DNA of 64,000 nucleotides from Bacteroidales bacterium (GCA_017940465.1 JAGAYN010000044.1:3662-67661), one strand, 5' to 3'. Counted from the first letter of the stretch, positions 3,092-64,000 are shown. Notes: generated by a model not told the origin, from the letters alone. Numbers and translations: made by a program.

Positions 3092-3865
3092 ATGAACGAT
3101 ATCTGGTTGAAATATTCTCAATATGGTGTTAGAGTATCTGTGTTGATAGGCAATCACAATATGGATAAGGACGACCGCTTTCTGGTTCCCTTCATTACAC
3201 GTCAGCGTAAATGGGGCCTGATGAACCGCAAAGGAGAACTGGTGGTGAATCCTGTTTATGATGCAATCTGTAATGACTGCCAAACGAAAGATGACCTAAT
3301 CATAGTGGGATTATTACATCCTTATGCGTTTTCTAAAGAAGATGGAACCATTGATGCGAGAGTTAAATATCACTATGGATTAATCCGCACAGACGGTACA
3401 ACGTTCTTGAATGTAAAATACAATAGTGTTACATTGGGTAGTTTGATAACCGTGATTGGTGATGATGGGTGCTTTGCAATGGATTACACCGGGAAGGTAA
3501 TTATACCCAAAGGAAGATATGCATGGATGGATGGCTTCGATGACGGGCTGGCTCGTGTGAATAAAACCATAGAAGGAAAAACAAAATGGGGTATTATTGA
3601 TTGCAACGGCGAAGAGGTTGCCCCTTTGGATTATGACAAAATTTGGAACTTTTATGGGAAAAATATGGACGGAACTAATTTTGAAAAGGATGGACAGAAA
3701 TACTATTTGAAGTTCGATTTGTTAAGACCTTTTGAGTATCAAAAGAAATACGAACTAACCGAGAGGCAAATCCGACAGAGGGAAAAAGGTGCATGGGACG
3801 AAGCAAAAGATATGTGGCTGGATGCTTTTGAGGGTGACCCTGATAATTATTGGAACATAGACTAA
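3092..3865 (+). CDS. WG-repeat (KWG) protein, cytoplasmic
   Basis: 257 aa with no signal peptide. Repeated units of the type KWGLMNRKGELVVNPVYD and KWGIIDCNGEEVAPLDYD. AT-rich codon usage unlike the flanking core genes. Confidence 0.65.
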   Translation: MNDIWLKYSQYGVRVSVLIGNHNMDKDDRFLVPFITRQRKWGLMNRKGELVVNPVYDAICNDCQTKDDLIIVGLLHPYAFSKEDGTIDARVKYHYGLIRTDGTTFLNVKYNSVTLGSLITVIGDDGCFAMDYTGKVIIPKGRYAWMDGFDDGLARVNKTIEGKTKWGIIDCNGEEVAPLDYDKIWNFYGKNMDGTNFEKDGQKYYLKFDLLRPFEYQKKYELTERQIRQREKGAWDEAKDMWLDAFEGDPDNYWNID

Positions 3866-3872
3866 TAAACAG

Positions 3873-4862
3873 ATGAAATACCGGCAATACAAAATAGTAC
3901 ACTTCTCCGAAATTGAGGACAAAAAGTTTGGCAGAGCATGGCGCATTCAGGCATTAGCCGAAGGAATACATCCCGACTGCACGGTTAGTTTTATGTTCTC
4001 CAATTTATACAGCAAAGCAGGGTTTTCGGAGTACTTCATCGCCCCCTACAACAATTATGTAATGGACGAGATAGAAGACATTGCTTTGCGCGGTGACGTA
4101 TGGTCGCCCGACACCAATGACTGGACGGTCGACAAGGAAAACACTATCGTGGACGGCATCCCCGTAATCACACACCACTATTGCGGTAGGTTGCAAGATA
4201 AGGCGCAGAAACCGGAGGACTGTAGTTCTCGAATTGCAAGTTGGATGCCATTATTCCAATTGATTATTGCAGAAAAATCCGACCTAAAACATAATACAGA
4301 TGCAGAAACAGGAATTGAATACTTTGAATGCGGAAAAGTGAAAGGATTTGTAAGTCCTTCGGCGATGAATGAACTTGGCAATGAGGTTTACAGCATGGGG
4401 GATTTCAAAGTGGCTATGATATCCTTCAAAGAAACCGCCCCCCAACCATGGCTGCTTTACGTTCCACCGAAATCCAAATTGGCAACAAGAAACACCTCGC
4501 AGCAACAAAGTGCAGATACATTACTCAAAATTGGAGAGTGGCGACAGGCTTTCCCCTTGGCAAAAAGAGCGATGGAGAAAAGCATGGAGGAAATGGGAAA
4601 GACTTTCAAATATGACTACAACATACTTAAGAAAGACCCCGAAGAGAATCCAGAAACTGGGATTTGCTTCGACCGCTTTGTTGAAAGCAATGTCCAACAT
4701 TTTCTACCTGCAATAAGAAATATGTTGAGAGTTTTCGACATGGCGATTAACGATATCGACAAGTGCAATGCAGCGGTGAATTACGAGGATGAACTGGAAG
4801 AAATAAAACAAACAGTTGACAAGATGGTGCACGATGCCAAAAAACCTTTTGAGAATGATTGA
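3873..4862 (+). CDS. Hypothetical protein (329 aa)
   Basis: Long ORF starting 7 nt after the WG-repeat gene stop, AT-rich like that neighbour. No motif I recognise. Confidence 0.6.
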   Translation: MKYRQYKIVHFSEIEDKKFGRAWRIQALAEGIHPDCTVSFMFSNLYSKAGFSEYFIAPYNNYVMDEIEDIALRGDVWSPDTNDWTVDKENTIVDGIPVITHHYCGRLQDKAQKPEDCSSRIASWMPLFQLIIAEKSDLKHNTDAETGIEYFECGKVKGFVSPSAMNELGNEVYSMGDFKVAMISFKETAPQPWLLYVPPKSKLATRNTSQQQSADTLLKIGEWRQAFPLAKRAMEKSMEEMGKTFKYDYNILKKDPEENPETGICFDRFVESNVQHFLPAIRNMLRVFDMAINDIDKCNAAVNYEDELEEIKQTVDKMVHDAKKPFEND

Positions 4863-8389: not shown

Positions 8390-8603
8390 TTTCTGCTACT
8401 CCTGCTGGCCACCACAGTCAGCACGCAGCAGGCCCGCCGCTATTGAGCCGCCGGGCCACTCTCGTGGAACGCCTTCCACCAACACTTCTGGCAGCGCTAC
8501 CGCCTGCCAGCCTCTTGGCACCCCGTTCCTCCGAATTGTCTCGCTGGAGCATCGATGCACGCCTGATGCTGATGCGCAACAAATACGGATTCTTTTACTT
8601 TTT

Positions 8604-8878
8604 TTTGCCACGTCGGAAAAAGTTCGCATCTTTGCACTCGCAAAACCGATAGGACGGTTTGCCGAGAAAGTTGCATTATCGCCTTATTCCGATTGTGTGA
8701 ACCTAGACAATTTACACGTCATCCGTAAAGTTAGGAATAGAGGAAATCCGATATGCTCCCATGGATTGATATCCACCTGTGGGGCAATTCAGAATACCTT
8801 TATATTCACTTTACGGGGAAGTCTAGGCCCTCACACAAGAAGATAGAGACTTAATGGATGGCTCCACTTTCTTCGTTG
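8604..8878 (+). ncRNA. Conserved promoter + structured 5' leader element, copy A
   Basis: TTTG (8604-8607), 19 nt, CATCTTTG (8627-8634). Blockwise alignment to 58608-58893 and 61079-61365. Ends in AATGGATGGCTCCACTTTCTTCGTTG, 72 nt before the ATG at 8950. Confidence 0.6.
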
Positions 8879-58500: not shown

Positions 58501-58607
58501 GTTGGTTTTTGCCCTTGTAACGCACACCCCCGCCTGTTTATTGCCTACCGATATATGTTTTCATGCGTAGAATGACAGCTCACGGATCGCGGCAGCCAAA
58601 ATATTTT

Positions 58608-58893
58608 TTTGCCGTATGAGAAAAAGTTTGTACTTTTGCACCCGCAAACCGCCGAGACATGGTTTGCCGAGAAAGTTGCATTTTTCGCCTTATTCCGAGT
58701 TTGTGAACTTGGCCGTTCATCAATAATGATATGTAGGAATAATAGGGAAGATGAATGCTCCTGTTTGGAATGTATGCACATGAGATACATCCAGTGTGGA
58801 GCGAATCATTAAACCATTATTTTATATCATTGGGAGGCCAAGCCCACACAAACAAAATAGTGCCAAGAATGGATGGCTCCACTTTCTTCGTTG
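58608..58893 (+). ncRNA. Conserved promoter + structured 5' leader element, copy B
   Basis: TTTG (58608-58611), 19 nt, TACTTTTG (58631-58638). Conserved blocks and helices are described in the findings. Ends 80 nt before the ATG at 58974. Confidence 0.6.
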
Positions 58894-58973
58894 CGTAAAA
58901 CTATCCCTCCCGTGCCGTGGGGAACAACTCAACAGCGACGGGCCGATGCTTTATAACCGGCTACAAAAAACCA

Positions 58974-59747
58974 ATGAAAGTAATACGATTATTACTGGCA
59001 ACAACGCTCCTGGCACTCGGAGCAACCCTGACCTCCTGCTCCAACGACGACGACAAAGCCGGCATGGGAAAGGCCCTGACCAGGCTCACTCTCGAAGATG
59101 AAGACGGCTACTACCAATCCCTCCACTTTTCCTGGGAGGACAACAAGGTAAGCTTCATTCAAGTTTGGGAATCAAATCGTTATGGAAACATGCTTCTTTC
59201 TGCCGAACTGACGCCAGAATACCGCAACGGCAAACTGGAATCCTGCTATGCCTACAGTGCAGAAGACCGCTCCGGCATCACCCTGCAAGGCAACTACACT
59301 GGCAATCAACTCACTCAAGTACAGATTCCTCGCGAGGACCCCGCACTGCTCAGCTACGACACCGAAGGCAACCTCCGCTCCATTAACATCAACCACGACC
59401 AGCTCTCCTTCTCGTGGAGCGGCGGACGCATTACACAAATCATCGACCCTGATGGGCGTTCTGTTTCCGTGACGTGCGACGACAAACGCAACCCGCTGAA
59501 CGATGTCATCCGCTGCATCATAGGCTCTTGGAGCGCCACAATGGGCAATATCACACGCCTGGTAAACTACCGTGGCGAAACCGTCGACCTCCAGTACACC
59601 TTCGACGGCGACTACCCCTCGCAGTGCCGTGTCATTGTGGATGGGAAAGTAGGCGGCATCCTATATTACGAGTACGCAGACGGCAGCGGTTCGGCTCCGG
59701 CCAACCTTCCCGCCAACTACAGCAAGAAAAGCTGGCGCATCTTCTAA
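58974..59747 (+). CDS. Lipoprotein with YD/RHS-like beta repeats (paralog of 8950..9951)
   Basis: ATG 58974 gives MKVIRLLLATTLLALGATLTSC (lipobox). Contains HFSWEDNKVSF, YDTEGNLRSI and FSWSGGRITQIIDPDGRS. Confidence 0.8.
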   Translation: MKVIRLLLATTLLALGATLTSCSNDDDKAGMGKALTRLTLEDEDGYYQSLHFSWEDNKVSFIQVWESNRYGNMLLSAELTPEYRNGKLESCYAYSAEDRSGITLQGNYTGNQLTQVQIPREDPALLSYDTEGNLRSININHDQLSFSWSGGRITQIIDPDGRSVSVTCDDKRNPLNDVIRCIIGSWSATMGNITRLVNYRGETVDLQYTFDGDYPSQCRVIVDGKVGGILYYEYADGSGSAPANLPANYSKKSWRIF

Positions 59748-59774
59748 ACCTATCCGGCGCAGGCTGGAACGACA

Positions 59775-59809
59775 GGGACACCTATGCCTTGCAGAGGTGT
59801 CCCTTTTTT
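59775..59809 (+). terminator. Rho-independent terminator of the 58974 gene
   Basis: GGGACACCT / AGGTGTCCC stem followed by TTTTTT. Confidence 0.75.
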
Positions 59810-59950
59810 GCATCCCTGCCATCCTCCCGGAGCACTCCTGGAGGGTAAGGAGAGGGGAAGAAGAGGGTGCCTCTTACATACTGAAAAACAGCCTGTTGCA
59901 AAACTGCAACTTAGGGCTGTTTTTCGGTTTTTTTTCGGAAAATCTGCAAA
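59806..59950 (+). repeat. Conserved 3' element, copy B
   Basis: TTTGCATCCC...CCGGAGCACTCCTGGAGG, then GAGGGGAAGAAGAGGGTGCCTCTTACATACTGAAAAACA, then a hairpin at 59889-59919 with a T-run at 59920-59936. Confidence 0.6.
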
Positions 59951-59969
59951 GGATTGCGGGGGTGTGTCG

Positions 59970-60863
59970 CTAATGCAGCGGGATGTGGCGCAACTGCTTC
60001 ATCTTCTTTGCGTTGAGGTGTGCCTGCTGGATGGTGGCGGGTGTCATGGCGGATTGCTGGAAGCGGTCGTAGACGATGTCCTCGGCCAGCGGCGAGGGGT
60101 GCGAGAGGTCGGGGCCGTAGAAGCGGTAGTCGCGCAGCTCGTCCAGCACAATTTCGTAGGCGGGGAAGTAGGAAATCGGAATTTGTAAGCTGAAAATCGA
60201 GAGCAGCTCCTCCACGGCCATCAGCAGGGTGGCCTTGCTGAGCTGGTTGCCGTGGGCACCGTCGGCCAGGTGGCGTATGGGGCTGACGGTGAAGATGATG
60301 TCGAGTCCGGGATTGAACTCCCTGAGTTTCACCAGCAGGGGTTTCCAAAGGGCGACGATTTCCCCCACCGGCATCCGCCGCCGCTCGAACATCGCCGCCG
60401 GCAGTTTGTGGCAGTTGGCCACCACCATCCGGGCGCCTTCGCCTTTCAGCCGGGGGATGAGGCCGTAGACCCATGCCGTGCCGAAGGTCACCATCAGCAC
60501 CCGTGCCGTATGCAATGCCTTGTGGGATTGGTGGATGCGGCTGTTGCATACCTCAAGCGTCTCCTCTGCCGTGGGGCGGGAGAAGGAGCCGTGGTGGTGC
60601 CACGAATGCCAAAGGCCCTCGTGCTGCACCAGGTCCCTGTCCGTGATTTCCCTGTCCTCCACCATGCGCTCCAGCGCCGCCGCCACCGACGCGGGATTGT
60701 ACAGCGTCCCGAACGGGTTCCGCTCCACACGGAATCCCCCCTCCTCCATCCTCCGCCCGATGGCATCGGCAAAGCACGAACCCATCGTCACCACCCCGTC
60801 CTCCATACTGATTTTCAACGGCATCGGCGACACCTCCACCGTGGTATAAAGCTGCATCTTCAT
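59970..60863 (-). CDS. GSCFA family protein
   Basis: Contains the GSCFA motif (VVTMGSCFADAIG). The start is probably at 60863 (MKMQLYTTV); the ORF is open to 60884. Confidence 0.8.
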   Translation of the reverse strand: MKMQLYTTVEVSPMPLKISMEDGVVTMGSCFADAIGRRMEEGGFRVERNPFGTLYNPASVAAALERMVEDREITDRDLVQHEGLWHSWHHHGSFSRPTAEETLEVCNSRIHQSHKALHTARVLMVTFGTAWVYGLIPRLKGEGARMVVANCHKLPAAMFERRRMPVGEIVALWKPLLVKLREFNPGLDIIFTVSPIRHLADGAHGNQLSKATLLMAVEELLSIFSLQIPISYFPAYEIVLDELRDYRFYGPDLSHPSPLAEDIVYDRFQQSAMTPATIQQAHLNAKKMKQLRHIPLH

Positions 60864-61078
60864 ATCTACATAGTTTATCCGCATAACGCTATATCACAAT
60901 GATTTATTACCCAACTATGTGAAAATAGCCAGTTACATGCCATTGCCACCACTCGTTACATATTATTTCATTCTATACGCATGATTCACAGCAATATAAC
61001 ATTGAACGTGCCAAATCTGGAATTGAATTCCAAATTTAGCCAGTGTGGATAGCCATCCTCCTATTCGCAGAAATATTT

Positions 61079-61365
61079 TTTGTCATATCTGGAAAAGTTT
61101 GTACCTTTGCACTCGCAAACCGCAAGAGTATGGTTTGCCGAGAAAGTTGCATTTTTCGCCTTATTCCTGGCTTGTGAAACTTCGACAACTTCACTAATGA
61201 TATACGGAACAAAGGATAGATTGATGCTCCTGATATGGTATATGTATTTTCCTATGCAATACCTTTGTGGAGCGGTTCATTACACCTTTATTTTATATCA
61301 TAGGGAGTCGAAGCCCTCACAAGCAAGATAGGGTTGCAAATGGAAGGCTCCACTTTCTTCGTTGC
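61079..61365 (+). ncRNA. Conserved promoter + structured 5' leader element, copy C
   Basis: TTTG (61079-61082), 19 nt, TACCTTTG (61102-61109). Ends in AATGGAAGGCTCCACTTTCTTCGTTGC, 72 nt before the ATG at 61438. Confidence 0.6.
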
Positions 61366-61437
61366 AAAATATATCTCAACGTGCCTTGGGAAAAAAAAAC
61401 TGAACCGCCAACAGTATAAAAGAGGCATAGTAACACC

Positions 61438-62889
61438 ATGAAAAAAACACTGTTTTTATGTATGTGCATCATCATGTTTGGGATGTCTGCAACTGCTCAA
61501 TATCAACTAACGCAGAGTATTGAACGCAAACTCCAAGGTAATCAGGAGACACTTAAGACGTTATCCAGCAATGGCGATGCAGAGGCCACGTACATACTAG
61601 GGTATCGAATGAAACTACAACCCTACAGAGACACCCTAAATCAGATGGCAAAAAACAAACAACCTGATGCGATGTTTTTCAAGTGGCTTTCATACCAATA
61701 CGGGAATGCATATCGCAGAAAGAAACCACTACTAAAGAAAACTGCCAAAAGTGGAAACAAATGGGCATGCTACATAATGGGGGAGATAACTCCATACAAA
61801 AAAAAGAAAGCAAAAAAGCAATGGTACATGAAGGCTGCTGAGGATAGTTGTGCAGACGCCTGCGTTGCACTATTAAAGTACTATTTTCCTGAGAATCAAA
61901 AAGACAGCATTTATATAATGATCAACAAAACTCTGGAGTTCTGTAAAGATGATAATGAACTCAAACATTTTGAGTATGAACTCGGCAAGGAACTCTATCA
62001 TTGCCTTCCTAAAGATGAAAAGGAACGAGAAAAGTACACATACATTATGCCTGACATAACTCAATTTCTTACAAATTCGTTTAATAATGGAAACTCTAAT
62101 GCTGCAGGGGAACTAATGAAATGCAATTACGAAAACCAAGACTATGAGCAAAGCATATACTATACATTCCAATACCTAGAGGCGTTCAGCAATCACATCC
62201 AGGTGAAAAGAGAATGTTATCTTAATTTATCCCGATGCTATCTTAAGACTGGAAAACCACAACTGGCAGAATCTTATGGCCTAGCGCGATATGAACTTAA
62301 CCTTAACGAATTTAACAATGGGCACTTACATTATGGATATCAGGCGTCTACCTCTGCAAAATGGATGAGCGAACTATATACTGAACTTGAAAGAGAAGAA
62401 GGGGCGCGATTGTGGTTTGAACGGGCAAAAGAGATTGAAAAACAGGCAAAGAAGTTGGAAAAATTAGCAAAAGAAAAAGAAAGACAGGCCCGATTGGAGC
62501 GTATTGCCAACGCCCTAGACAATGTCAATACAGTCCTGTCGGCAGCCAATGATTTGGCGACCCAAATCAACAATTACAAAGCCCCGTCATCTGCCAGCAC
62601 AACATCAGATTATTCAGGTTCCTCGTCCTCTACCAGCAAAAGCAGTCCCGGGAGAAAACACGACCCATATGCCGCCTCACATGAAGCCAACAAGCAGAAC
62701 GCCGAGAATATCTACCGTCGCTACAGCAACCAACTAATCGACATGAACACCAACTACGAGCGTGATTACAACGACAGCCAGCGCCGACAGATTCAAGCCA
62801 GCATGAAAAAGATACGCACCGAGTGGGAGCAAAAGGGCTATACGTTCTGGCATTCCCCATGGGAGAATTGGGACGGCCATAAACAATAA
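61438..62889 (+). CDS. Secreted Sel1/TPR-like protein with coiled-coil and Ser-rich C-terminal region
   Basis: Signal peptide MKKTLFLCMCIIMFGMSATAQ. Sel1-like units, a KEIEKQAKKLEKLAKEKERQARLE coiled coil and an S-rich tract. Markedly AT-rich compared with its surroundings. Confidence 0.75.
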   Translation: MKKTLFLCMCIIMFGMSATAQYQLTQSIERKLQGNQETLKTLSSNGDAEATYILGYRMKLQPYRDTLNQMAKNKQPDAMFFKWLSYQYGNAYRRKKPLLKKTAKSGNKWACYIMGEITPYKKKKAKKQWYMKAAEDSCADACVALLKYYFPENQKDSIYIMINKTLEFCKDDNELKHFEYELGKELYHCLPKDEKEREKYTYIMPDITQFLTNSFNNGNSNAAGELMKCNYENQDYEQSIYYTFQYLEAFSNHIQVKRECYLNLSRCYLKTGKPQLAESYGLARYELNLNEFNNGHLHYGYQASTSAKWMSELYTELEREEGARLWFERAKEIEKQAKKLEKLAKEKERQARLERIANALDNVNTVLSAANDLATQINNYKAPSSASTTSDYSGSSSSTSKSSPGRKHDPYAASHEANKQNAENIYRRYSNQLIDMNTNYERDYNDSQRRQIQASMKKIRTEWEQKGYTFWHSPWENWDGHKQ

Positions 62890-62909
62890 TACGGATATCT
62901 CTCCCAGCC

Positions 62910-63045
62910 AGTCTCCTGCCACATACCTGGCAAAGACGAAGAGGGGAAGAAGAGGATACCCTTAACATACTGGAAATCAACGGGCCAAAATCTGACGATT
63001 TTGGCCCGTTTTGGGGTTTTTGAACGGAAAATTTCGAGGTTCGGG
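62910..63045 (+). repeat. Conserved 3' element, copy C
   Basis: CTCCTGCC...GAGGGGAAGAAGAGGATACCCTTAACATACTGGAAATCAAC, followed by a hairpin with a T-run. Confidence 0.6.
62982..63021. terminator. Terminator hairpin between the 61438 gene and dnaE
   Basis: GGGCCAAAATC / GATTTTGGCCC stem followed by GTTTTGGGGTTTTT. Confidence 0.7.
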
Positions 63046-63047
63046 GG

Positions 63048-64000
63048 CTAACTCTTGGGGATGGGGGTAATGTCGTATACACCAGCGAGTTGGAACAGCT
63101 CTGGGATGAATTCGCGGGCGGAGACGCAGAGGTCCTGCGATTCCATGGTGAGTTGCAGATCGCGGTCCGGATCCACCACCAATGCCTGCAGGGGGATGGT
63201 GCCCTTGTGGCGCTTGGCCAGCCGCTGGAGCGCCTCGCAGAATGCCTCGTTCACATCGGCAAGCATGAGCTTGAACATCAGGTGCCCCGTGTAGCGGTCC
63301 ATCACATTCCCGAGGGGCATCATGCTGGTTATCTTGAGTCTGGTGAAGCTACGCTCGGCATTGGTCTTCTTGTCGGTATAGTGGCTGGTGCGTACCGTGC
63401 CACGGCAGTAGACGAAGGTGTTGTTTATAAAGAAGTTGCGGTAGTCGGTATACTCCTGGCCGAAGAGTTTGAGCTCGTAACTGCCGCTGTAGTCGTCCAG
63501 CACCATACTGCCGAAGGGTTCGCCCTTCTTGCTGACCATCTCCTTGACATCGGAGACCATGCCTGCGAAGCGCACCTCGCACCCGGAAAGGGCTTCGAGG
63601 CTGTTCAGCTTGTCGACACCGATATTGGTATAGGCCTTCACCTCGTACTTGTAGTCATCCAGCGGATGGCCGCTGAGGTAGGTGCTGATGACCTCCTTTT
63701 CATAGCGGCAGCGTTCGATGTTGGTCCACGGCTGGGCTTCGGGGATGGGCGGATGTTCCTCCTCGGCCAGTTCGGTACTCATGCTGAAGATGGACATCTG
63801 GTTGGAGGCCGATCCGTCCTGCTGGCGGATGGCCCATCGGACGAGCTGGTCGAGGTAGGTGGGGGTGGTCTCGAGGTCGTTCGCCTTGAAGAAGTACTGC
63901 GCGCGGTGCATGGTTCCCACGCCGTCGAAGGCACCGGCCTTGACAAGCACCTCCATGTTCTTCTTGTTCACCGAGTGCATGTCGACACGCTTCAGGAAGT
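63048..64000 (-). CDS. dnaE: DNA polymerase III alpha subunit, C-terminal part (continues beyond window)
   Basis: VLVKAGAFD..., followed by an OB-fold region and C-terminal tail typical of DnaE. The frame is open to the window end. Confidence 0.85.
   Translation of the reverse strand, partial: FLKRVDMHSVNKKNMEVLVKAGAFDGVGTMHRAQYFFKANDLETTPTYLDQLVRWAIRQQDGSASNQMSIFSMSTELAEEEHPPIPEAQPWTNIERCRYEKEVISTYLSGHPLDDYKYEVKAYTNIGVDKLNSLEALSGCEVRFAGMVSDVKEMVSKKGEPFGSMVLDDYSGSYELKLFGQEYTDYRNFFINNTFVYCRGTVRTSHYTDKKTNAERSFTRLKITSMMPLGNVMDRYTGHLMFKLMLADVNEAFCEALQRLAKRHKGTIPLQALVVDPDRDLQLTMESQDLCVSAREFIPELFQLAGVYDITPIPKS

Follow-up and report, generated by a model that had tools for sequence, protein, structure and literature searches.

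A structured leader RNA family of uncultured Bacteroidales, with an intact member ahead of an orphan gene on a lineage-specific insertion

Riboswitches that occur many times per genome (those for cobalamin in Bacteroides, for instance, or for c-di-GMP in Firmicutes and Deltaproteobacteria) occupy leaders of 200-300 nt between promoter and start codon, precede diverse and often surface or exported genes, and combine long-range loop-loop pairing with alternative pairings near the expression region. Attenuators of the trp type and T-box leaders have a chain of mutually exclusive segments (1:2, 2:3, 3:4). The invertons of Bacteroidales have short inverted matches flanking a promoter ahead of surface-protein genes, while Correia elements of Neisseria and integron cassettes are repeated modules that give expression signals to unrelated genes and are inserted in a lineage-specific manner. 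The leader family described here resembles all of these, the invertons at one copy only (copy C). It is unlike the multi-copy riboswitches in that it has no Rfam match and its downstream genes share no metabolic theme, and in that it belongs essentially to one uncultured genus.

The window that we analysed is a 64,000-nt stretch from Bacteroidales bacterium (GCA_017940465.1 JAGAYN010000044.1:3662-67661), and positions are counted from its first nucleotide. It holds leader copies A, B and C. A BLAST search of 60951-61460 against the window aligned copy C with copy B (58599-58927) at 77% identity over 337 nt and with copy A (8601-8878) at 71% identity over 298 nt, bearing out the homology claimed in the first-pass annotation of this DNA. 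The conservation of copy C runs block by block from the promoter almost to the start codon at 61438. The leaders make up a new, well-supported family of structured leader RNAs, of which copy C is an ordinary intact member standing on a lineage-specific insertion.

The promoter lies on the plus strand at 61079-61109, with TTTG at 61079-61082, a 19-nt spacer, and TACCTTTG at 61102-61109, and this block is kept in all copies of the genome. TTTG/TAnnTTTG is the consensus of Bacteroides promoters, and the promoter would be of the primary-sigma Bacteroidetes type. The core of the leader RNA follows on the same strand (253 nt, 61112-61364) and matches our covariance model, R1, over the full model length, with 236.4 bits and E=2.7e-58. 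Copy C keeps every element and looks functional. The interval 61079-61437 is probably one intact copy of a portable expression module that consists of the promoter and a folded RNA leader of ~325 nt.

Model R1 was built from 22 copies. The genome of the window (2.24 Mb, 59% GC, 56 contigs) contains 10 full leader copies and one 3′ fragment. R1 searches detected the leader in 80 genomes out of 101 sampled from the genus, with 1-10 copies per genome. Of 140 other genera in the order, only 2 had it, and a few further single copies came from the two other families to which these belong. Leader copies inside one genome are 70-82% identical, the same divergence as is found between species. Exact matches to a 22-mer of the 3′ block are present in 69 public-genome stretches, all of them from uncultured Bacteroidales or Bacteroidetes MAGs, and the source is the ruminant gut throughout, where one is stated. 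The leaders of the two other families (L149, L186, L187, L150 and L185) are single diverged copies that retain the kissing loop described below; the one in G190 (RUG14538, 'uncultured Bacteroidia', L149) precedes a gene for a radical-SAM enzyme, and the one in G235 a gene for a 74-aa Cys-rich repeat protein.

The R1 fold of the core, on the plus strand, consists of two domains joined by a 7-bp loop-loop pairing. It starts with the 5′-terminal hairpin P1 (61115-21 / 61132-38), after which the long-range helix P2 pairs a 5′ AGAAAG with a 3′ CUUUCU (61139-45 / 61354-61). The 5′ domain is made up of P3 (61149-52 / 61224-27), P4 (61159-67 / 61206-15) and the hairpin P4c (61174-78 / 61190-94), and a variable hairpin (61237-63) separates it from the 3′ domain, formed by P7 (GUGGAGC/GCUCCAC, 61267-73 / 61346-53), P8 (61285-94 / 61325-33) and P9 (61302-05 / 61314-17). 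The kissing partners are the P4c loop CUUCGAC (61180-61186) and the P9 loop GUCGAAG (61307-61313). The 3′ block GGCUCCACUUUCUUCGUUG (61346-61364) supplies both the 3′ arm of P7 and the 3′ strand of P2; within it GGCUCCACUUUCU is invariant and the tail almost so. Its first 13 bases are invariant in 79 copies, 23 of which came from BLAST without use of the 3′ block.

When 92 distinct copies were aligned to the model, standard pairs filled 94.7% of cells, compared with 87.6% in shuffles, and changes on both sides were seen at 39 of 51 pairs, compared with 19.6 in shuffles (none of 500 shuffles was as high). The covariation score was 0.230, and fell to 0.04-0.05 with the 3′ partners slid by 1-3 columns. 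The alignment behind these pair counts was fitted to the model, which biases it towards structure, and we therefore sought support independent of the model in P1, in the kissing loops and in distant homologs. P1 occurs as GCAAACC/GGUUUGC, GUAAACC/GGUUUAC, GUCUUUC/GAAAGAC, GAUGCUA/UAGCAUC and GUUGCGG/CCGCGAC. Of 88 distinct copies, 86 have P4c and P9 loops able to join by 6-7 contiguous Watson-Crick pairs, and at least 10 sequence variants of this pairing occur; loops combined across different copies average 3.6 pairs. P7 and P2 are nearly invariant within the family; in distant homologs P7 is compensated to AGGCG/CGCCU (G235 and G251) and P2 to AGGAAG/CUUCCU (G251). Only the sense strand is rich in G-U pairs, which fits an RNA transcribed from the adjoining promoter. 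The conserved fold of the leader family is thus well supported. None of the 4227 Rfam families matched any leader copy, by gathering score or at E values up to 1-10, and a literature search for a described motif returned nothing relevant.

A long ORF on the same strand starts within 260 nt in 73 of 79 copies; the distance from core to ORF is 35-95 nt in 64 of them. The first ORFs behind the 73 copies fall into 45 unrelated BLASTP clusters, and their products include lipoproteins, other signal-peptide proteins, zinc-ribbon proteins and one radical-SAM enzyme; 56 of the 73 have a hydrophobic N-terminus. The proposal that the leader is conserved independently of its cargo is upheld by this diversity together with the covarying RNA fold. 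An unrelated gene behind the leader is the rule in the family, copy C being an ordinary member in this respect also, as the presence of 45 clusters among 73 proteins would lead one to expect.

The gene behind copy C (61438-62889, plus strand) encodes an orphan of 483 aa, exported and predicted to be all-helical, in which a signal peptide, helical repeats, one long helix and a Ser-rich tract can be recognized. It had been reported as unrelated to the ORF behind copy B, with which BLASTP agrees (E=0.37). Among 5.8 billion proteins its only matches were itself and two weak partial ones. The label 'Sel1/TPR-like' is not demonstrated: Pfam gave nothing at E<=0.01, the best family being TPR_12 at E=0.044 and 14.4 bits against a cut-off of 30.1. 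A single-sequence structure model shows helices only, among them a long one at residues 305-379, and leaves the Ser-rich stretch disordered; its confidence is low (pLDDT 45), too low for a fold search. Nor is the ORF 'much more AT-rich' than the leader, as had been stated, its GC fraction being 0.417 and that of the leader 0.392. It is 0.387 over the first 1000 nt and 0.482 over the last 452 nt, and the ORF is AT-rich only relative to the genome (0.585-0.594) and to ORFs A and B (0.54). The GC fraction of the leader, too, is far lower than that of the genome.

The leader extends beyond the core. Just ahead of the A-rich start region the alignment places a hairpin, P10 (61374-61391), with the stem UCUCAA / UUGGGA and the loop C-GUGCC, and the loop motif G(A/G/U)GC(C/U) is kept in 61 of 64 spacers over 53 different closing stems. 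By reading of the alignment, a weak P11-like hairpin, GCC / GGC (61407-61426), would be homologous to the GCCG...CGGC module of other copies. These features bear on whether the core is instead an independent gene for a small RNA with its end at P7 and UUUCUU, the downstream gene being a mere neighbour. Multi-copy small RNA families exist in Bacteroides, and the core has its own promoter and ends in a long hairpin followed by a U-rich tract. We nevertheless consider a small RNA gene unlikely: the downstream gene always lies nearby and shares the leader's strand, the conserved P10 carries the structure on to the start region, and the spacers between core and ORF appear to have no TAnnTTTG box of their own, to judge from a reading of the alignment that was not systematic. 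We infer cis action of the leader on its downstream gene.

Translation of a leader peptide could in principle exert such control. An AUG at 61340 opens a short frame (MEGSTFFV in copy C, MDGSTFFV in most copies) that is in register in 76 of 79 copies, and the frame of copy C (MEGSTFFVAKY…, 33 codons, 61340-61438) ends in AUGA, overlapping the start codon of the gene. Across copies, however, the frame is from 8 to more than 100 codons long, three copies are frameshifted or have no AUG, and the AUG is missing from the distant homologs. At synonymous sites there is no variation, as fits RNA pairing and not coding, and stops near the gene start show no enrichment (11 of 64, with 7 of 59 and 7 of 55 in the other frames). 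Attenuation by a leader peptide is therefore very improbable.

Copy C and its gene lie in a 2.16-kb insertion (60885-63047; spacer, leader, gene, 3′ repeat and hairpin) that splits a GSCFA gene (59970-60884, minus strand) on its left from a dnaE-like OB-fold gene (63048-63980, minus strand) on its right. The two neighbours are adjacent or nearly so, with gaps of 0-120 nt, in 26 of 29 other genomes of the genus examined, and none of the 29 has a leader at this junction. ddl closely follows GSCFA on the same strand wherever it is within the examined stretch. A second inserted unit, B (58528-59969), is likewise on the strand opposite to the dnaE-like/GSCFA/ddl string, and the genome of the window alone has two such opposite-strand units, B and C, in the string. 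Leader C with its gene is a lineage-specific insertion, seen in the genome of the window only. A tandem duplication of the B and C units with their neighbours was rejected, the minus-strand neighbour genes being unrelated.

In the closest relatives (G003, G006 and G048) the junction holds AT-rich islands or a leaderless lipoprotein gene, and this differing content marks the dnaE/GSCFA site as a hot spot. The islands, of GC 0.34-0.47, are at L145:4788-6705 (G003) and L146:189-3025 (G006), and one gene product of the G003 island reads Sel1-like (…QNGDANAMYNV…). Copy A, located after nqrF, is common to G000, G006 and G048 only, among 30 genomes. Copy A of G006 is followed by the same protein family, and no swapping of the ORF is therefore seen there.

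Outside the leader, at 61010-61042, is a 33-nt palindrome, GCCAAATCTGGAATTGAATTCCAAATTTAGCC, which is an inverted match to itself and a relic of a variable neighbouring region. Homologous palindromes, two each, are upstream of GSCFA in G003 and G006, where there is no leader; the palindrome GGCCAAATCTGGAATTnAATTCCAGATTTGGCC is thus found in the three closest genomes (61010-61042 of the window; L145:4578-4607 and 4731-4770; L146:3339-3374 and 3494-3523). One of the G006 copies overlaps the start of a gene beginning MELNSIFGQNMYKRILENHL, taken to encode an AAA-type ATPase.

Insertion between housekeeping genes raises the question of a mobile cassette at the DNA level, with single-stranded hairpins as recombination sites like integron attC. 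Leader-plus-gene units are lineage-specific insertions at two or more sites, the downstream genes are extremely diverse, copies appear sporadically in other families, and unit C lies between two copies of a short repeat, GCCAAA(A)TCTG. This repeat has three sites in the whole genome, two of which flank unit C in direct orientation (61010-61020 and 62984-62995), within a wider match, AACGKGCCAAAWTCTGR. It could be due to chance or be a trace of the insertion of the unit, its right-hand copy being the hairpin of a 3′ element that is found genome-wide. The repeat after the ORFs (59813-59890, 62902-62979) has more than 70 copies in the genome, in both orientations, and we rejected it as a dedicated boundary of the cassette for not being specific to these units. 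The 3′ element is ~100-130 nt long; in it a purine-rich GGGGAAGAAGAGG box precedes a CATACTG core, itself followed by a variable hairpin. The element also occurs in relatives. Unlike Correia elements and integron cassettes, the leader lacks terminal inverted repeats, its copies share no target duplication, and nothing is conserved upstream of the promoter. There is no integrase with it, and no integron-type or other spare recombinase in the genome. The copies are old and diverged, their divergence within the genome being at the level found between species, which argues against recent transposition. What is conserved is an RNA fold that begins directly after the promoter and ends at the start codon, always in the sense orientation. 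On this evidence a mobile DNA cassette is about as unlikely as a small RNA gene, and the expression module remains our reading of the unit.

The left edge of copy C drew attention in the first-pass annotation because of a block upstream of the promoter that resembles parts of the leader. Read directly, the block is at 61040-61057 on the plus strand, with CCAGTGTGGA at 61040-61049 and GTGGATAGCCATCC at 61044-61057; the sequences had been given correctly, and the coordinates one base too high. CCAGTGTGGA is indeed identical to 58791-58800 of copy B, and GGAAGGCTCCAC is at 61342-61353 as described. It had been suggested that the block and its partner are inverted repeats bracketing an invertible promoter, or that the block is left over from a partial copy.

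In the first case GTGGATAGCCATCC and GGAAGGCTCCAC would be recombinase sites, and a flip of 61058-61341 would silence the gene and perhaps drive GSCFA. The two blocks are roughly complementary and bracket the promoter, and the gene on the left reads away from the leader. When the 120 nt upstream of the promoter were compared with the reverse complement of the promoter-plus-leader of copy C, however, the best inverted alignment scored 15, below the 17.9 +/- 2.6 of 200 shuffles (p=0.94). Under the same scoring the match in question, which has a 2-nt gap and one mismatch, comes to ~13 against copy C and ~18 against the family consensus (manual count). Both values are at or below the shuffle mean, and the match is thus no better than chance. 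A left repeat had been found missing at copies A and B, and no inverted repeat to the 3′ block was present in any of the other 76 copies tested. Upstream inverted matches were significant in 7 of 77 copies, each of them a divergent promoter. As an arm of a conserved RNA helix, the right block is kept in all copies for reasons other than inversion.

Complete copies are collinear with the model from end to end, in 98 of 103 matches and in all matches of the genus-wide search; the remaining five are cut by the locus end, are deletion variants, or are an echo on the opposite strand. No assembly has a leader copy in an inverted arrangement, incomplete copies being plain deletions or truncations. 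The 94%-complete assembly has no match to a serine recombinase (Resolvase family), and its two tyrosine recombinases (Phage_integrase) are on contigs C32 and C40, neither of them the contig of the window. A metagenome scan with the left flank for other assemblies of the locus, whichever their orientation, returned 0 contigs. With a match at chance level that is unique to copy C, and with no invertase candidate, we give an invertible promoter hardly any credence. A terminator-like hairpin at 61044-61069 from a pattern scan was also dismissed, two such hairpins being found where 2.4 are expected from shuffles.

In the second case the block would be the remnant of another leader copy, partial or inverted, that was destroyed by rearrangement. 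It has the 10-nt identity to the internal block of copy B and, allowing a 2-nt gap, 12 of 12 matches to the reversed family consensus GGATGGCTCCAC, and truncated leader copies are known elsewhere. The GUGGAGC and GCUCCAC arms of the leader are mutually complementary, which makes the direct resemblance and the inverted one a single observation, and the similarity ends within 18 nt in both orientations. The CCAGTGT of the block continues the flank of the 33-nt palindrome at 61010-61042, and this flank with its palindrome is also found in G003 and G006, which have no leader at the site. A remnant is therefore no more credible than leader-peptide attenuation, and the left-edge block is a chance resemblance to the GTGGAGC / GGCTCCAC arms of the leader, without a role.

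How the module might work is suggested by four conserved segments that could pair in a mutually exclusive chain. Region 1, GCUCC (61226-61230, plus strand), can pair with the GGAGC of region 2 (61269-61273) as an alternative to P7. Pairing 2:3 is P7 itself (GUGGAGC with GCUCCAC), which would stack on P2 and close the P8-P9 arm, followed by UUUCUUCGUUG, and pairing 3:4 would join GGCUC of the invariant 3′ block to the complementary GAGCC that is the family consensus of the P10 loop. Pairings 1:2 and 2:3 are each possible in more than 92% of copies. For 1:2, 92.3% of cells are paired, a level not distinct from shuffles because the columns barely vary, and these columns show no covariation; a subfamily with CACUUGG/CCAAGUG appears to compensate the pairing, by reading of the alignment. 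Pairing 1:2 closes the variable hairpin and is the minimum-free-energy choice in 87 of 87 copies, favoured over P7 by a mean of 12.9 kcal/mol (nearest-neighbour energies, pseudoknot ignored), from which it follows that P7 may need help in forming. Pairing 3:4 is complementary in 54 of 61 copies, covariation being impossible where the partner strand is invariant, and the P10 loop of copy C, GUGCC, has one U-U mismatch with GGCUC.

Through such a chain the folding state of the core could reach either of two targets, P10 beside the start codon or the P7-P8-P9 hairpin, which with UUUCUU behind it is terminator-like, and the outcome would set the output of the downstream, mostly exported, protein. 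We infer this switch from complementarity and conservation only. The chain is like that of trp-type attenuators and T-box leaders in its succession of segments and differs in that its 3:4 step is a loop-to-strand pseudoknot and not a terminator, in the lack of a convincing leader peptide or of tRNA-binding features, and in the sensor-like kissing-loop core that precedes it. It is possible, and we say so tentatively, that the leaders form a new class of RNA switches that sense an effector, be it a small molecule, a protein or temperature. In a rumen Bacteroidales genus they would bring newly acquired genes for surface or secreted proteins, unrelated and dozens in number, under one signal; a gene would then enter the regulon simply by landing behind one of the copies.

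An RNA of 250-330 nt with a covarying kissing loop is on a par with the larger cis-acting RNAs of bacteria, and up to ten copies of it in a 2.2-Mb genome stand outside every Rfam family. The leader would mark a regulon of exported proteins in an abundant uncultured rumen lineage that has no genetics, and offers a handle on which signal these bacteria use for surface remodelling.

A Bacteroidales small SRP RNA (RF04183, 112 bits) is located at L008:356-462, ~1 kb from leader copy I. Two deletion variants of the leader, L055:6492-6566 and L089:3350-3526, are each still ahead of a gene. One is a 75-nt 'mini' leader with only P1, AGAAAG and the 3′ block, and the other is missing the part from the 3′ strand of P4 through the 5′ arm of P7.
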